Source: a virus
Strand: one strand, 5' to 3'
DNA length: 31,719 nucleotides
Virus genome (UHGV): UHGV-0106476
Shown here: positions 3,561-8,753 of the stretch, one piece after another
Numbering within the stretch: position 1 is the first letter of the stretch
Layout: each line of letters begins with the position of its first letter
Program-made: the position numbers and the translations under genes
Notes under the pieces: model-generated
What the model was told of the DNA's origin: nothing
Database searches by the model: none
The model's input: only the letters and a program-made list of their open reading frames with translations

Positions 3561-3639
3561 GAATATCTCCTTCGTTACCGATTAATTCTTTCATCTGACG
3601 AATGAATTCTTCGTCTGACCAGTTATCTGTAAAACTCAT
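3481..3639 (-). CDS. small ORF between kil and erf (Arf-like position), candidate B
   Basis: 52 codons (MSFTDNWSDEEFIRQMKELIGNEG...); its ATG overlaps the kil stop (ATGA). Alternative to candidate A. Confidence 0.3.
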   Translation of the reverse strand: MSFTDNWSDEEFIRQMKELIGNEGDIHVTCNHSEGEQVTETHVHAESSLVSP

Positions 3640-3788
3640 TTCCTGCGATACCACGGAAGGTTGATAGCTGATTTCATCGCTTTATTTGCTTCAAACCACA
3701 TTTTGGAATCACCAATAAATCTGGCTATTACTGCTTTGTTCTGTGCAGCACGAAGCATCTGGTGATTGATGGCTATTTCATTGCGCAT
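3636..3788 (-). CDS. kil: Kil-like host cell-division (FtsZ) inhibitor
   Basis: 50-aa ORF MRNEIAINHQMLRAAQNKAVIARFIGDSKMWFEANKAMKSAINLPWYRRK, with the FIGD-x-KM core recalled from lambda/P22 Kil; sits directly downstream of cIII as in lambda. Confidence 0.6.
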   Translation of the reverse strand: MRNEIAINHQMLRAAQNKAVIARFIGDSKMWFEANKAMKSAINLPWYRRK

Positions 3789-3904
3789 AATAAGACCTCA
3801 ACTCTTTTCCATCCGTCACGTAATTTACGGGTGATTCGTTCAAGTAAAGATTCATTTAGTTGGAAGGCACCCATGCGAGCGCCTCCCGCGATTGCGTAAA
3901 TCAT
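3773..3904 (-). CDS. cIII: CIII (FtsH inhibitor stabilising CII)
   Basis: 43-aa ORF MIYAIAGGARMGAFQLNESLLERITRKLRDGWKRVEVLLCAMK; the ESLLERITRKLRDGWKR segment matches the conserved core of lambda CIII. Below the ORF-track length cutoff. Confidence 0.8.
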   Translation of the reverse strand: MIYAIAGGARMGAFQLNESLLERITRKLRDGWKRVEVLLCAMK

Positions 3905-3927
3905 GGGTGGTTCCTTATGTTGGTTTA

Positions 3928-4896
3928 TTAGTAGGTTATTTTTGTTGCGAATACTTCGCCTTTTACGATGGCTGTTATGATATTTTTAGCAACATCTTCT
4001 GATGCGCCAACCTTGATAAGGTCAGCAAGTATTTTGTTATTTACTTCTTTCCGGTGAGCTTTATCCTTTGCTCTACGCTCTTCTTCGTCCTTGATTCTTT
4101 TTTCTTCTGCTATTCTGGCTTGCTCTTTTGCTTCAGCCTCGCGCCGGATTCGTTCAGCCTCCTCCTGTGCTTTTCGGCGTTCTGCTTCAATTGCCGCCTG
4201 CTTTTCTCTTTCAGCTCGTTCTGCTGCCTCTTTTGCTTCGCGCTGTGCTCGTTGCTCGGCTTCAATGCGTTCACGCTCTGCACGTTCCGCTGCGGCCTTA
4301 GCTTCTGCTTCTCGCCTTGCTGCTGCTTCAATTTCGGCTTTTGCCTTTGCTTCGGCTTCTGCTCTGGCTTTCTCTTCAGCTTCTCTTTTTAAGCGTTCTT
4401 CATGCTCTCGCTTTTCCTGCTCCGCTTTGAGTCTTGCCTCTTCTCTTTGGCGGTCAAATTCGCGATCCATCAAAATAGCTATTTCATGGTCAGACTCAAT
4501 TTGCTTTGCGAGAGCTTCAGCTGCTGCCTTAGCTTCTTCTTCGGCTTTAATCCGTGCCTGTTCCTCCTCATAATCAGTAAGAGGCTGGCGTGCCTTGGAT
4601 TTCAGCTCATCAAGGCGATCACGCACTGTCTTGCGGTTGGCATCAATTAGCTTTGGAATTTCCTTCAGTTCAGCAACAAGGTCTTTTCCAAGACCATCGA
4701 GATATGTTTTCGTCTGCGCAACTTTATACGCCAGAGAAGCGATCTCCTTTCTGCCCTTTGCCGTTGTGATATCAGGCACAAAGGACATAACTTCACGTTC
4801 AACCTTTTGAAGGATTTCTTCAATCTGGTCGGCAGACTGAAATACAGTCATTGCATTTGCTTTTTCAATAACAACTAAATCTGTTACTTCACTCAT
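3928..4896 (-). CDS. hypothetical protein with long E/A/K/R-rich charged helical repeat region
   Basis: 322-aa ORF: globular N-terminus, about 150 aa of EAKAxAE/RREAE-type repeats, then a short C-terminal domain (NKILADLIKVGASEDVAKNIITAIVKGEVFATKITY). Confidence 0.6.
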   Translation of the reverse strand: MSEVTDLVVIEKANAMTVFQSADQIEEILQKVEREVMSFVPDITTAKGRKEIASLAYKVAQTKTYLDGLGKDLVAELKEIPKLIDANRKTVRDRLDELKSKARQPLTDYEEEQARIKAEEEAKAAAEALAKQIESDHEIAILMDREFDRQREEARLKAEQEKREHEERLKREAEEKARAEAEAKAKAEIEAAARREAEAKAAAERAERERIEAEQRAQREAKEAAERAEREKQAAIEAERRKAQEEAERIRREAEAKEQARIAEEKRIKDEEERRAKDKAHRKEVNNKILADLIKVGASEDVAKNIITAIVKGEVFATKITY

Positions 4897-4908
4897 ATAT
4901 CCTCCGTC

Positions 4909-4936
4909 AAAAAATTGCCCTCACACTGGAGGGCAA
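4909..4936 (-). terminator. intrinsic terminator on the pL strand upstream of the 322-aa gene
   Basis: Minus-strand RNA: 8-bp stem (4929-4936 with 4915-4922), 6-nt loop, then a U6 run (4909-4914). A second 9-bp hairpin lies at 4997-5024. Confidence 0.5.
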
Positions 4937-5029
4937 AGAAGATTTCCAATAATCAGAACAAGTCGGCTCCTGTTTAGTTACGAGCGACATTGCTCCGTGT
5001 ATTCACTCGTTGGAATGAATACACAGTGC

Positions 5030-5218
5030 TTATTCGTCATGCATTTCAGGTAATTCTTCGTATTCGACGCCCCATACGAGTTTACACCAACTAACTCGCT
5101 CATATCTTTTACAAAAATCAGACCACATAACTTGGGTTCCATCATGGTTTGTTATTACTTCTGTAATATCACCAACACTAACAAAACTGGTATTAGAAGC
5201 AGTTATTTTTACTTTCAT
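5030..5218 (-). CDS. hypothetical protein (AT-rich accessory block)
   Basis: 62-aa ORF; start overlaps the upstream stop (TAATG); low-GC local composition by eye. Confidence 0.45.
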   Translation of the reverse strand: MKVKITASNTSFVSVGDITEVITNHDGTQVMWSDFCKRYERVSWCKLVWGVEYEELPEMHDE

Positions 5219-5514
5219 TACTTATCCCCAAGAGCTTTTCTGATTGCTGCAAGACCTTTATTAACAGCTCCATACCATTCTGGATATGTTGTCGTTGTTC
5301 TATTTTTGGATTGCTTAAGTAATAACTGAAGTGCTTCGAGAAGGTCAGGTGCTGCCGCTATTAGATTGGCATCTTCAATGCATTGAACTTCCTCACAGAT
5401 TGCAATATACGAACGCCAGCCTGCGCCATTTTCAAGTGAGTCTGCCTGGATTATTTTAATCTCATCGCCATCCATCATTATTTCCCACTTACCTTCAGTA
5501 CCTTTAAATTCCAT
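5218..5514 (-). CDS. hypothetical protein (AT-rich accessory block)
   Basis: 98-aa ORF, ATG at 5512-5514 with AGAGGA RBS. Confidence 0.5.
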   Translation of the reverse strand: MEFKGTEGKWEIMMDGDEIKIIQADSLENGAGWRSYIAICEEVQCIEDANLIAAAPDLLEALQLLLKQSKNRTTTTYPEWYGAVNKGLAAIRKALGDK

Positions 5515-5535
5515 GTTATCCTCTGTTGTTTATGC

Positions 5536-5562
5536 CAAAAATAAAGGCCGACTATGCGGCCT
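5536..5562 (-). terminator. putative intrinsic terminator between the 156-aa and 98-aa genes
   Basis: Minus-strand hairpin (stems 5545-5550 and 5557-5562, 6-nt loop) followed by UUUAUUUUUG; overlaps the 156-aa gene stop. Confidence 0.4.
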
Positions 5563-6031
5563 AGTAGAATACCCAATTTTCTGTTTCTTGGTTGTGTCCA
5601 AAGTTATATTCAATATCTGGTGTTGATGTATCAATATTCTTCATCCCATCAACAAGAGTTGATACAACAGCCAAATCTTGTTTGATTCTCATCAAATGGT
5701 ATTTCTTCCGGCGCAATAAACTTTCAATGGCAAGTTTCTTCGTTGGGAATGCAAAAGATCTTTCTGCATTTTTTGCTACTTTCTTAATTGCATATCTATT
5801 TCTCCTTTGTTTCCATTCCTGTAACCACTGATTTGGTGCTGGTTTAAAATTAACAATCCAATGCGCAGGAACCAACCATGCATAATGCTCTGTCTGATGA
5901 AAAGCTATATATTGAAGTGCGAATATTTTGATTCCATCTTCTTCAACTGTCGCTTGGAATCTCCAGAAAACAGGCATTCCATCATGTTCAGTTTCTGATT
6001 CAGGAAAAGGTACGCTCCATGATTTTGTCAT
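5561..6031 (-). CDS. hypothetical protein (AT-rich accessory block)
   Basis: 156-aa ORF, ATG at 6029-6031 with GAGGTGAG RBS; soluble, Trp/His-rich, no motif recognised. Confidence 0.55.
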   Translation of the reverse strand: MTKSWSVPFPESETEHDGMPVFWRFQATVEEDGIKIFALQYIAFHQTEHYAWLVPAHWIVNFKPAPNQWLQEWKQRRNRYAIKKVAKNAERSFAFPTKKLAIESLLRRKKYHLMRIKQDLAVVSTLVDGMKNIDTSTPDIEYNFGHNQETENWVFY

Positions 6032-6093
6032 ATCTCACCTCAAATAAGTGGTTTGCTGCCAAAACAATGAACCATCCGGAAATTCCAGATAGT

Positions 6094-6318
6094 TCATAAT
6101 TCACTCTTCAATACTTCCAACTTACTAATCGCCGATAGATATCCGCGCTGATAGGGCATCATCACTCCTTCGAGCTTGCCACTTCTTAACTCCTCCCTGA
6201 GCAATTGTATTGCTTGATCAATAACCTCTGCCTTAGCGTCCTTTATGGCTTGCTTGCGGGGCTTTGCTTTCTGCTTTGGCAGATTTCTCAAGCATGATGG
6301 AATGTATGTCTGATTCAT
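6094..6318 (-). CDS. hypothetical small basic protein immediately downstream of N
   Basis: 74 aa from the ATG at 6316-6318 (MNQTYIPSCLRNLPKQKAKPRK...), GAGGTAAG RBS; the ORF track's extra codon is a GTG. Confidence 0.5.
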   Translation of the reverse strand: MNQTYIPSCLRNLPKQKAKPRKQAIKDAKAEVIDQAIQLLREELRSGKLEGVMMPYQRGYLSAISKLEVLKSEL

Positions 6319-6321
6319 CAC

Positions 6322-6594
6322 TTACCTCGCTGTCAGTTGTTTTGATTTCCGGTAGCCTGCCGCGTAAAGAGCTACGTTTGGCAGGCAAATACTTCCACTG
6401 CATTCATCTGCCTTCTTGCAGCGAAGGCTTCCGAGTGATGCTGCTTTGTCTGCTCTGACGCAACCAGAGAGCTTTAGCGCAATTTTTCGCGCCAGTCGCT
6501 GCTCTTGCATTGCCTGTTCACGTTGAGCCTGTCTGCGTGCTCTGCGGCGATTTCTGGCGTTATCGTCAGCCAGATATGTAATGACTACTGTCAT
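6322..6594 (-). CDS. N: N-type transcription antiterminator
   Basis: 90-aa ORF with an N-terminal arginine-rich motif (NARNRRRARRQAQREQ) and a C-terminus (LPNVALYAAGYRKSKQLTAR) recalled as close to P22 gp24; sits downstream of pL and nutL. Confidence 0.75.
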   Translation of the reverse strand: MTVVITYLADDNARNRRRARRQAQREQAMQEQRLARKIALKLSGCVRADKAASLGSLRCKKADECSGSICLPNVALYAAGYRKSKQLTAR

Positions 6595-6701
6595 GTTGAC
6601 CTCCGATGATTGACTTTGGCGGTGACGCGCCGGGTGCTTATCTTCCGGTTGCCGTCGTGCAGCTGCACTTCACGTCACCCCAAAGCCAACTACTCTTTGG
6701 T

Positions 6702-6743
6702 TCCCGCATTTCGGCGGGACAATCCCATCAATGTTAAAGAGCC
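6702..6743 (-). promoter_or_regulatory. nutL: nutL (boxA and boxB)
   Basis: Minus-strand boxB UCCCGC-CGAAAU-GCGGGA at 6702-6719, identical to the hairpin at 8399-8416; boxA-like GGCTCTTTAACA at 6732-6743, 12 nt upstream. Confidence 0.7.
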
Positions 6744-6788
6744 TGCCAATCTGTTCCGTTTGGCTACCAGCGTCCTGCTGATGGCTAA

Positions 6789-6830
6789 AGAATACTGTAG
6801 GTATTTTATTGTGTAAATACCCAAGGTATT
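6789..6830 (-). promoter_or_regulatory. pL promoter with OL operators
   Basis: Minus-strand -35 TTTACA (6812-6817), 17-nt spacer, -10 TATTCT (6789-6794). Operator-like 15-mers AATACTGTAGGTATT (6791-6805) and AATACCCAAGGTATT (6816-6830); a weaker third site at 6861-6875. Confidence 0.55.
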
Positions 6831-6962
6831 TATTTTTGGTGAAATAATGATAAGCAAATGAATACAAAGGATATTTATTTTTTTCGGTGTCTGCTTGTTC
6901 AGTGCTTTTTATGCGGGATATGTGAAGTGGATCCCGATAGCTATTGCTGCCGGGATTATGGG

Positions 6963-7331
6963 TTAGTCAGCGAAGGTTAAGACGAGAATTACCTTAATGA
7001 TGTCTGCTACAACAGACACGGCCATAGATAAACCAAAGACAATCCAAGCCATAGAGATGTCTTCACTACCATCGTATAGAGTTCCGTAATCACTGGTGTA
7101 AGGCGTAAATGTCGCGCCTTGATACAATAGGTATAAGCTTGATCCATAGAGGAAAAATGCAGATATCCCTTGTATTGCCATGATCACCAGAATCATGAAA
7201 CGAGCTGATCTATGCGCCCAAGCCTGGCTTATTTTTTCTGATAGAGATTTCGCAATAAAAGCATGCGCTAAGCCGTAAATTGTCGAGATTGCCAACATCC
7301 CAAAAAAGCTTGCTATAGCGGTTCCAACCAT
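6963..7331 (-). CDS. small three-TM membrane protein in the rex position downstream of cI
   Basis: 122 aa from the ATG at 7329-7331 (MVGTAIASFFGMLAISTIYGLAHAFIA...) with AAGGGG RBS, 17 nt after the cI stop; three hydrophobic segments. The ORF track's longer form starts at a TTG. Confidence 0.6.
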   Translation of the reverse strand: MVGTAIASFFGMLAISTIYGLAHAFIAKSLSEKISQAWAHRSARFMILVIMAIQGISAFFLYGSSLYLLYQGATFTPYTSDYGTLYDGSEDISMAWIVFGLSMAVSVVADIIKVILVLTFAD

Positions 7332-7348
7332 AAGCGCCCCTTGCGTGA

Positions 7349-8065
7349 TCAAACCAGCCTTAGTTTTGTCTCAATTGCAACGCCTATAATCTTGCAGTTT
7401 CCATTGATTGGCACGAGAGGCCATGCAGGGTTAAGTCCCTTGAGGTATTTATTTCCGCCGTCGATTATCAGCTTCTTGAATGTTGCTTCGTTAGAGTCAG
7501 AAAGTTTTGCTATGACCAAGCTGCCGTTGATCGCCTCCCTTCCGGTATCGAAAAGAACGAATGTTCCCTCTGGAATGCTTAACCCAACCGGTGCCGTCAT
7601 TGAATCACCTTCCACTTTAAGCCAAAACGCATTACCTTGAATATGCGCGTCAGACTCAAGCCAAACATCTATGTCTTTAATGGTGTATGGTTCGCATGCT
7701 TCACACCACGAGCCAGCCTGGATACTGCTTAACACCGGATACCTCTTTCCTGCTCTGTATTCCCCTGCATACCTTACGTTGGCATCGCTCTTAAGGCTTT
7801 CTGCCTGTTCTGCAACCTTGGCAGCAATTGACTGGCTAAAATCAGCAATTGAGACTTGCAATAATCGTGCAAAACCAGATGCAACCTCAACGTTTAGCGC
7901 ATTTCTGCCATTAAGATAATGCCCTACCGCTCCTTGGGTGATACCCAGTTCATCAGCGATTGAGTATTGGGTTATTCCCAATTCTTTCTTTTTTGACTCA
8001 TACAAAGCCTTAAGCCGCTTAGCGTCTTCGAGCTGTTCTGTCGTCAGTGATTTTTTATTTTCCAT
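7349..8065 (-). CDS. cI: CI repressor (HTH plus LexA-type S24 autopeptidase domain)
   Basis: 238 aa with an N-terminus resembling lambda CI (LTTEQLEDAKRLKALYESKKKELGITQ), an EGDSM Ser motif and a C-terminal catalytic-Lys region (FKKLIIDGG); divergent from cro. Confidence 0.9.
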   Translation of the reverse strand: MENKKSLTTEQLEDAKRLKALYESKKKELGITQYSIADELGITQGAVGHYLNGRNALNVEVASGFARLLQVSIADFSQSIAAKVAEQAESLKSDANVRYAGEYRAGKRYPVLSSIQAGSWCEACEPYTIKDIDVWLESDAHIQGNAFWLKVEGDSMTAPVGLSIPEGTFVLFDTGREAINGSLVIAKLSDSNEATFKKLIIDGGNKYLKGLNPAWPLVPINGNCKIIGVAIETKLRLV

Positions 8066-8100
8066 AGCTTAATTCTAATAGCTAAGGTACTTAAACTAAA

Positions 8101-8142
8101 AATACCCTGAGTATTGATTGCCTTGAATACCTGTAGTATTCT
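8101..8142 (+). promoter_or_regulatory. PR promoter with OR operators
   Basis: -35 TTGATT (8114-8119), 17-nt spacer, -10 TATTCT (8137-8142). Operators AATACCCTGAGTATT (8101-8115) and AATACCTGTAGTATT (8126-8140), the same family as OL. GGAGAG RBS at 8161-8166 precedes cro. Confidence 0.55.
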
Positions 8143-8171
8143 TTGTTCATGGTTAATAACGGAGAGTGCAT

Positions 8172-8366
8172 ATGATTCGAATGACACTTGCCGATTACGC
8201 CAAAATCCATGGACAGGCTAAAGCAGCCAGTGACTTTGGTGTAATCCAGTGCGCTATCAGCAAGGCCATTCTGGCAGGCCGTAACATCATGGTTACGGTA
8301 AAGCCTGATGGCAGTGTGATTGGAGAGGAAGTTCGTCCTTTCCCAAGCAACAAGAAAAACAAATAG
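8172..8366 (+). CDS. cro: Cro repressor
   Basis: 64 aa from the ATG at 8172 ([64 protein letters not shown]), closely resembling lambda Cro. The ORF track's start is an upstream GTG. Confidence 0.85.
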
Positions 8367-8372
8367 TAACAC

Positions 8373-8416
8373 CGCTCTTTAACAGTCATGGTCCTCATTC
8401 CCGCCGAAATGCGGGA
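8373..8416 (+). promoter_or_regulatory. nutR: nutR (boxA and boxB)
   Basis: boxA CGCTCTTTAACA at 8373-8384; boxB TCCCGC-CGAAAT-GCGGGA at 8399-8416, identical to nutL boxB. Confidence 0.7.
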
Positions 8417-8474
8417 ATACAACGCGCATAAGTTGATGCGCATAACTTCTTATTAGTTAAGGAAATACTTACAT

Positions 8475-8753
8475 ATGCAACTTACAAGTACTCGCAAGAA
8501 AGCGAATGCAATTACAAGCAACATCCTGAATCGAATTGCTGTACGTGGTCAGCGAAAGGTTGCCGACGCGTTAGGGATTAATGAATCGCAAATTTCGCGA
8601 TGGAAAGACAGCTTCATCCCAAAAATGGGAATGCTTCTGGCTGTTCTTGAATGGGGTGTTGAAGACGAGGAGTTGGCGGAACTGGCTAAGAAAGTAGCCA
8701 GAATGCTGACAAAAGAAAAAGCCCCGAAGAACGGCGAATTCTTCGAGGCCTAA
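8475..8753 (+). CDS. cII: CII transcriptional activator
   Basis: 92-aa ORF; NESQISRWKDSFIPKMGMLLAVLEWGV matches the lambda CII core (KSQISRWKRDWIPKFSMLLAVLEWGV). Confidence 0.85.
   Translation: MQLTSTRKKANAITSNILNRIAVRGQRKVADALGINESQISRWKDSFIPKMGMLLAVLEWGVEDEELAELAKKVARMLTKEKAPKNGEFFEA
8508..8521 (-). promoter_or_regulatory. CII-binding site of a pRE-like promoter
   Basis: Minus-strand TTGC-TTGTAA-TTGC (TTGC-N6-TTGC) inside the 5' end of cII, the same arrangement as lambda pRE. Confidence 0.55.
8711..8749 (-). terminator. OOP-like antisense RNA terminator overlapping the 3' end of cII
   Basis: Minus-strand 10-bp stem (one G-U) with 9-nt loop followed by UUUUUCUUUU (8711-8720); convergent with cII, as for lambda oop. 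A candidate -10 (CATAAT, reverse complement of 8785-8790) lies about 60-70 nt upstream. Confidence 0.5.

Follow-up and report, generated by a model that had tools for sequence, protein, structure and literature searches.

A mosaic accessory block between N and a PreS-like element in the early-left arm of a lambdoid Escherichia coli phage

What do lambdoid phages keep directly downstream of their antiterminator gene N, and do the genes found there belong together? The question arises from the virus genome UHGV-0106476, of which a stretch of 31,719 nucleotides (the window) was analyzed; its minus strand carries the early-left arm of a lambdoid, P22-like phage of Escherichia coli, and next to N in that arm lie four small open reading frames (ORFs), here ORF1 to ORF4 in the order in which they follow N. 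A first-pass annotation had taken them as one AT-rich accessory block, in a position that typically carries anti-restriction or host-takeover morons. Our bioinformatics analyses make it reasonably likely that the block fills, in this phage, the hypervariable accessory slot that lambdoid phages have in the PL operon and in which lambda keeps sieB, orf28, and ral, and that it encodes early accessory proteins whose expression depends on N. Judged by its gene order in relatives, the block is at least three independently assorting modules (N with ORF1, ORF2, and ORF3/ORF4) and not one cassette.

A mosaic slot between shared flanks

A nutL candidate and N lie upstream of the four ORFs on the same strand, an element resembling the lambda small RNA (sRNA) PreS with its terminator tL2a, and then cIII and kil, lie on the distal side, and what stands between these shared flanks varies. 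The PL segment of lambda, which reads N, sieB, orf28, ral, PreS/tL2a, ea10, cIII, kil, has the same operon, strand order, and borders: PreS/tL2a is the immediate 3' neighbor of ral there and of ORF4 here, and ORF2 is followed here by the linker that in lambda comes after ral. The genes between the borders, on the other hand, all differ, ral, sieB, and orf28 being absent from this phage, and an Sf6-gp33-like gene is found here where lambda has ea10. No phage record and no complete E. coli record covered 80% of positions 4850-6650 of the window, and pieces of this segment were found in 327 phages and in 2314 of 5426 genomes, with breakpoints that coincide with gene boundaries. A comparison with over ten phages and prophages related to this one shows the slot to be variable. 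Phages sharing the flanks arrange it in more than ten different gene orders, and its contents in relatives include Ral, P22-gp17-like proteins, SieB, DUF2528, a pentapeptide-repeat protein, a Nun-like ORF, and Ea10/Ssb.

The same comparison dissolves the single block of four ORFs. For example, N and ORF1 are contiguous with phage phi367 (window 6029-7400, from cI to ORF1, at 98.3%); past this shared stretch, phi367 carries an inserted small ORF and ral ahead of ORF2, and it lacks ORF3 and ORF4. Two E. coli prophages match positions 3801-6063, from the gp33-like gene to ORF2, without a break, yet carry other N genes. ORF3 and ORF4 occur together in 60 of the 5426 genomes, and one or part of them in 195; an unrelated 52-amino-acid (aa) ORF (as translated) follows ORF3 in mEp043, where APC_JM3.2 likewise has an ORF of 52 aa, and an unrelated 44-aa ORF lies 5' of ORF4 in ETEC4085.

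Relatives with better known early-left regions show the same reassortment. In phages that carry Shiga toxin (Stx) genes and are of the 933W type, the ORF2 protein is 99-100% identical to that found here, is preceded by the same linker A and ribosome-binding site (RBS), and is likewise encoded by an early-left gene after N; there, however, ORF2 directly follows a different N and is followed at once by PreS/tL2a and ea10/ssb, and ORF1, ORF3, and ORF4 are lacking. In the P22-like phage ST104, orf18 shares the motifs and the tail of ORF3 and lies in the same operon, before a Salmonella version of the PreS-like element, whereas its N-terminal half differs from that of ORF3 and its neighbors are ral, the gene for a pentapeptide-repeat protein, and gene 17. 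The slot occupied here is also that of the ral-containing accessory region of Silas et al., described as a hypervariable set of small early genes that includes counter-defense factors and abortive-infection triggers (10.1101/2023.04.06.535777); the gene tested there, orf184, is none of our four ORFs.

Two short linkers stand at the module borders. Linker A (also given as GGCAGCAAACCACTTATTTGAGGTGAnnTATG) holds the RBS of ORF2, and the same 28-30 nucleotides (nt) are found 5' of ORF2 behind four different upstream genes as well as 5' of unrelated genes in phi367 and mEp213. Linker B joins a terminator tail to the RBS of ORF3, and its U-tract and downstream bases also lie 3' of ral in phi367 and lambda, behind a different stem; relative to lambda, ORF3-ORF4 form an insertion of ~500 bp between linker B and the next element. 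Short linkers of this kind, with an RBS or a terminator tail, repeatedly flank genes that are unrelated to one another. By their distribution, linkers A and B, together with the tail of the ORF3 family, look like recombination points of the mosaic, and modules would be exchanged between phages by recombination at such linkers. A further rearrangement is seen in mEp213 (L011), where two N-type genes are annotated in tandem (2336-2608 and 3761-4093) with an orf18-like gene between them.

Gene and signal content of the block

The four minus-strand ORFs of 74 or 75, 156, 98, and 62 aa were found where the first-pass annotation had placed them, each with an RBS (GAGG for ORF1, GAGGTGA for ORF2, AGAGGA for ORF3, and GGGGA for ORF4); public records give ORF1 74 aa, from the ATG at 6318. 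Judged by selection and homology, all four are real protein genes. Each has a full-length match to a PHROG profile (5305, E 4e-38; 1636, E 3e-112; 1273, E 9e-32; 10407, E 6e-46), all four being families of unknown function, and the exact sequences of all four proteins are present in public collections under the label "hypothetical protein" and are common in E. coli prophages.

The block as a whole is more AT-rich than its surroundings, as had been proposed, with a GC content of 0.389 against a window mean of 0.483 (standard deviation 0.031 for stretches of the same size); it falls in the lowest 1% of such stretches, and the minimum of the window lies inside this region. The signal comes from ORF2 to ORF4 (GC 0.35-0.40, and 0.24-0.29 at third codon positions), whereas ORF1, at 0.443, is not markedly AT-rich. 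Atypical composition with a terminator downstream, a trait of morons, is present in the block. Hairpins with U-tracts lie at 5536-5562 and 4909-4936, both located as reported earlier. A third and stronger hairpin, at 6097-6059, had not been listed; it overlaps the ORF1 stop codon (-20.8 kcal/mol, z -5.4, none of 200 shuffles as stable), its tail after 6097-6067 reads TTGTTTTGG (given as UUGUUUUGG with the 6059-6097 extent), and it is kept together with the N+ORF1 module in phi367, mEp213, and a further locus (L013). It is possibly the first terminator of the operon, or else an RNA processing site. Directly after ORF2, AGGCCG-CATAGT-CGGCCT is followed by TTATTTTT, the stem at 5562-5545 having 6 bp of which 5 are GC. 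The three terminator-like hairpins are scattered among the four ORFs, all on the same strand and all 3' of the nutL-like site and N, and six terminator-like sites were observed where 3.1 were expected. A consensus promoter scan of positions 4900-6300 on the minus (coding) strand found no sigma-70-like site, a scan that weak or unusual promoters could escape.

If the block belongs to the PL accessory slot, transcription would start from PL after infection or induction and proceed during lytic growth. The N-modified polymerase would read through the hairpins, which would make expression past the first of them dependent on N, and the four genes would be expressed early, together with PreS, cIII, and kil. 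ORF4, whose start overlaps the stop codon of ORF3 (TAATG), would be translationally coupled to it.

Table 1. Features of the early-left arm, listed in the direction of transcription (positions in the window)
Feature	Position	Strand	Remarks
cI	7349-8065	minus	
129-aa ORF	6963-7352	minus	phrog_6534 (function unassigned in PHROG)
Promoter-like site	6817-6789		between 129-aa ORF and nutL
Candidate nutL	6703-6742	minus	read from sequence; 5' of N
Antiterminator N, 90 aa	6322-6594	minus	PF25694 N_peptide, E 4.8e-16; phrog_271
ORF1	6094-6321	minus	75 aa from GTG 6321; 74 aa from ATG 6318
14-bp hairpin over ORF1 stop codon	6059-6097 including tail (stem 6097-6067)	minus	from fold and shuffles
Linker A	6029-6060	minus	GGCAGCAAACCACTTATTTGAGGTGAGATATG; holds strong ORF2 RBS
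ORF2, 156 aa	5561-6031	minus	phrog_1636, E 3e-112
Terminator-like hairpin	5537-5562	minus	directly 3' of ORF2
Linker B	5520-5545	minus	TTTATTTTTGGCATAAACAACAGAGG; terminator tail and ORF3 RBS
ORF3, 98 aa	5218-5514	minus	phrog_1273
ORF4, 62 aa	5030-5218	minus	phrog_10407
HP1, perfect 14-bp hairpin	4995-5026	minus	directly after ORF4 stop; abuts PreS-like 5' end
PreS (LPR1)-like sRNA, 88 nt	4909-4996	minus	ends in lambda tL2a terminator, 4936-4909
Hairpin, 8 bp, then TTTTTT	4936-4915	minus	after 62-aa gene
322-aa Sf6-gp33-like gene	3928-4896	minus	distal flank; phrog_1376
cIII	3773-3904	minus	after 322-aa gene
kil	3636-3788	minus	after cIII

The four proteins

ORF1 (phrog_5305) always accompanies this N allele in lambdoid phages and is present in 149 of the 5426 E. 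coli genomes. Full-length homologues with 38-55% identity are found in phages of Erwinia, Salmonella, Pseudomonas, and Vibrio, lytic siphophages among them.

ORF2, with seven Trp residues, belongs to the family of HK97 gp45, Stx2-phage I ORF-60c, and phi24B vb_24B_11c. It is present in 598 of the 5426 complete E. coli genomes (11%) and in 83 phage records, mostly Stx-converting and with the gene directly 3' of N, and the exact protein is found on at least 1000 contigs. The ratio of nonsynonymous to synonymous substitution rates (dN/dS) is 0.047 within E. coli; against the Cronobacter and Pectobacterium homologues the proportion of nonsynonymous differences (pN) is 0.23-0.25, with a saturated synonymous proportion (pS) of 0.85. 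The Cronobacter gene lies after N and before cIII, that of Pectobacterium just before xis-int. A profile search returned 87 representative clusters, most of ~130-155 aa, the remainder being fragments and two repeat artefacts, the long proteins P0207 and P0221, which were rejected as relatives. The core common to this wider family is SRFAFxTKxxAxxxLxxRKxxQLxHLKR, and all proteins aligned from the profile set match PHROGs of unknown function. A Pfam search with the wider alignment gave only noise, the structure model of ORF2 was of low confidence, and a fold search with it yielded nothing usable. Two identities considered for ORF2 were dropped: an AP2-like DNA-binding domain in its core (hhalign probability 0.4%) and orf184, the gop-beta-cII trigger of the ral region, whose model file begins MEALVVERSEDGYWT.

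ORF3 is acidic (pI 4.7) and belongs to the family of P22 orf78 and ST104 orf18, the latter being 45% identical to it with a dN/dS of 0.14. Its features are a motif EDAxLIAAAPDLLEALQ, a variable middle, and an invariant tail AAIxKALGxx. Nearly all of the homologues listed, near-identical ones included, carry the precomputed assignment PF27050.1; our own Pfam scan of ORF3 gave no match, the copy of Pfam scanned having no PF27050 model, and a literature search for the PF27050 name gave nothing. The structure model has a mean predicted local distance difference test score (pLDDT) of 72, with a confident C-terminal helical hairpin and a low-confidence N-terminal half predicted as a beta region, and at this moderate confidence a fold search returned nothing usable. 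The N-terminal half is also found in lytic phages of ~136-150 kb that infect Klebsiella, Salmonella, Cronobacter, and Proteus. The tail of the family (columns 118-128 of alignment A2) shares DNA with the RBS and the start codon of the following gene, which may explain why it is conserved despite the hypervariable middle; flanked by conserved ends, that middle resembles a specificity region that undergoes diversifying exchange.

ORF4 is likewise acidic (pI 4.8). The exact protein is found on 571 contigs, and no phage record has a match to it at 80% identity or more. T4-like Krischvirus phages have an early ORF of 119 aa, RB49ORF076c (RB49, locus L005, 2312-2671), whose C-terminal part is ~60% identical to ORF4, and against this homologue pN is 0.33 and pS 0.94. 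Small domains common to temperate and virulent phages of the same hosts are thus seen in ORF1, in the N-terminal half of ORF3, and in ORF4.

What the block may encode

The four products would be small soluble proteins without enzyme signatures, two of them basic and two acidic. Ral and P22 gp17, known occupants of the slot, act against host or prophage defenses. The products of the four ORFs are probably non-essential binders of host or rival-phage components, with a part in counter-defense or host takeover; this is the weakest step of the argument and rests on the known occupants of the slot, on unrelated lytic phages of these hosts that carry relatives of ORF1, ORF3, and ORF4, and on AT-richness. 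It is possible, if somewhat doubtful, that at least one of the four proteins represents a new counter-defense or host-takeover family; ORF2 would be the best candidate, because it is invariant in 933W-type Stx phages, lies directly after N there, and reaches so many complete E. coli genomes, and ORF3 would be another. That none of the ORFs resembles Ral or SieB, as the first-pass annotation had stated, was confirmed. No similarity to Ral was found in Pfam, NCBIfam, or the PHROG function labels, and relatives that have Ral carry it as an additional gene of its own; nor was there any similarity to SieB or PADLOC defense proteins, and the hydrophilicity of the proteins also argues against a membrane protein. 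There were no matches to characterized proteins, the ORFs are not core genes, and a literature search by family or gene identifier of the relatives of ORF1 to ORF4 found nothing relevant.

Several points weigh against reading the block as an accessory slot of counter-defense type. Searches of the four ORFs against Pfam, NCBIfam, PADLOC, and PDB sequences gave noise and no family match, and neither their peptides nor those of P22 orf78 were found in the available part of the supplementary text of 10.1101/2023.04.06.535777. The dependence on N and the silence in the prophage are what we infer from the sequence arrangement. By energy, the terminator-like hairpin that follows ORF2 is a weak one (z only -0.5, with a centroid fold of -9.6 kcal/mol). 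Finally, ORF2 is near-constant in 933W-type Stx phages, so a phage-internal rather than an arms-race role may fit it.

The main alternative, which we consider rather unlikely, is that one or more of the ORFs, ORF1 and ORF2 above all, encode regulators or helpers of the phage's own program that act through nucleic-acid binding and whose targets could be transcription, replication, recombination, or the lysis-lysogeny decision. Both proteins are basic (pI 9.7 for ORF1 and 9.1 for ORF2), the ORF2 family has a conserved basic helix RKxxQLxHLKR, and the operon neighbors N, cIII, and PreS are all regulators; ORF1 is moreover the constant companion of this N allele, and the nearly invariant ORF2 follows N in the Cronobacter prophage as it does, directly, in 933W-type Stx phages. 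Such a role sits poorly, however, with the absence of ORF1 and ORF2 from lambda, from P22, and from many near relatives that share the flanks, which makes them dispensable, with the presence of ORF1 in lytic phages without N, and with the Pectobacterium ORF2, which adjoins xis-int and not N. No DNA-binding family was detected, including the AP2 domain discussed above.

A role as lysogenic-conversion morons, in which the genes would be expressed from the prophage and would protect the lysogen by superinfection exclusion or abortive infection as SieB does, is quite improbable. SieB does occupy this slot in lambda and ST104, and the genes are AT-rich, flanked by terminators, and very common in prophages, but all four proteins are hydrophilic (negative grand average of hydropathy) and PADLOC matches none of them, relatives occur in strictly lytic phages, and linkers with RBSs, together with the overlap of ORF4 with the ORF3 stop, bind the genes closely to the PL operon. 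As the consensus scan found no promoter-like site inside the block on the coding strand, its genes look like operon members and not like classical morons. Very little speaks for ORF3 and ORF4 as a toxin-antitoxin-like or otherwise obligate pair: the TAATG overlap and their joint occurrence in 60 complete genomes would suit it, but each gene is found without the other (mEp043, ETEC4085), both proteins are acidic, and in T4-like phages the domain seen in ORF4 is joined to another N-terminal part. That some of the ORFs, being short and without families of known function, are chance frames in AT-rich DNA is hardly tenable in view of evident purifying selection, full-length homologues at 40-70% identity in other genera and phage families, and a full-length PHROG match for each.

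The RNA element at the distal border

The hairpin after the 62-aa gene is not a terminator private to the block; by its sequence it is lambda tL2a, the 3' end of the PreS sRNA. Positions 4996-4909 are identical to the corresponding lambda stretch at 87 of 88 nt, and with covariance model R1 the score is 153.5 bits in this phage against 156.5 bits in lambda (33912-34045, between ral and ea10). The preprint on LPR1/PreS locates this RNA between ea10 and ral, has it terminate on the 3' side at tL2a, and describes it as an Hfq-dependent RNA of ~88 nt, with a 68-nt processed form, that raises dnaN translation and supports lambda replication (10.1101/2024.10.31.621285). Here as in lambda, the tL2a hairpin with its poly-U tract marks the distal edge of the ral slot, and the predicted RNA of this phage lies outside the coordinates of the four ORFs.

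A structured element of 134 nt after ORF4 (5029-4896) is conserved across lambdoid and P22-like phages of E. coli and Salmonella. The covariance model was built from 41 copies and found 81 matches. Pairing holds in 94.6% of the cells of the alignment and in 37-49% of those of slid controls; both sides are changed in 18 of the 27 pairs, and none of 500 shuffles reaches the observed score. These figures are to be read with the alignment leaning towards the model to which it was fitted and with the compensatory changes being a few hairpin alleles, not many independent events. RNAalifold on a MAFFT alignment missed the terminator and HP1, a hairpin directly after the ORF4 stop (Table 1), as that alignment had set the hairpin variants off by one column, which realignment to the covariance model corrected. 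An Rfam scan of positions 3800-8600 gave no match.

HP1 is itself stable (-22.1 kcal/mol, z -5.9). In relatives its position and stem length are kept with at least four unrelated stem sequences (CTGTGTATTCATTC.., TATAGCAGA.., TAATGACCA.., and TAATGCGGATTC..; see also loci L008 2954-3087, L009 2907-3040, and L020 5021-5154), 9 of 13 pairs are changed on both sides, and the versions assort independently of whether the remainder of the element is of E. coli or Salmonella type. This pattern suggests that HP1 may be a processing or stabilizing signal and, more speculatively, that it could be the processing signal that creates the 5' end of PreS; no mention of such a hairpin was found in the available part of 10.1101/2024.10.31.621285.

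Variants of the element were also seen. Phage mEp213 has two copies, in one of which (L011 2946-3079) a boxB-like hairpin, GCCCTCCGAAATGCGGGAAC, replaces the terminator hairpin. The model gave weak extra matches of 34-41 bits, one of them in an unannotated gap between N and the ORF2 homologue of Cronobacter (L007 3850-4000) and others at L032 324-475, L091 6445-6596, L132 10500-10651, and L072 7679-7830, second copies that in loci of the Salmonella type lie ~270 nt upstream of the main one. Inside the PreS-like RNA lies a 26-codon ORF, MSLVTKQEPTCSDYWKSSLPSSVRAIF (4909-4990, minus strand), at a place where phi367 has an ORF annotated; it is unlikely to be coding, as its RBS is poorly spaced and Salmonella versions have ATA in place of its ATG.

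Flanking genes

Upstream of N, the candidate nutL consists of a boxA-like GCTCTTTAACA at 6742-6732 and a boxB-like hairpin, CCCGC-CGAAAT-GCGGG, at 6718-6703. Further upstream, a 129-aa ORF overlaps the stop codon of cI, an arrangement also seen in phi367, and by its position it is probably co-transcribed with the repressor in lysogens; searches of Pfam and PADLOC gave no match to it. In other phages this position is held by rexAB, stk, or exclusion genes.

The first-pass annotation had set the block between N and the recombination module. N is indeed its upstream neighbor, whereas on the other side the 322-aa gene, cIII, and kil separate the block from erf/abc2; past kil come, in order, a small ORF matching a "recombinase" PHROG, erf, an SSB-like ORF, and abc2. 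The 322-aa protein is highly charged, rich in E, K, A, and R, and bears the RefSeq name "cell envelope biogenesis protein TolA"; its match to TolA is at noise level (E 0.26), and the name is probably misleading for a protein of the Sf6 gp33/phrog_1376 type.

Implications

Taken together, the block is a new combination of known, uncharacterized cassettes in a known kind of region, and it leaves the current understanding of such regions uncontradicted. The slot after N is one place where lambdoid phages, Stx phages included, keep fast-changing early genes, and cassettes appear to be exchanged at short linkers that also serve as RBS or terminator. The link between the slot's distal border and PreS, an sRNA described only recently, aids the mapping of equivalent regions in other prophages. 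The four ORFs are well-defined, selection-supported, and uncharacterized candidates, one of which is ubiquitous in Stx phages.

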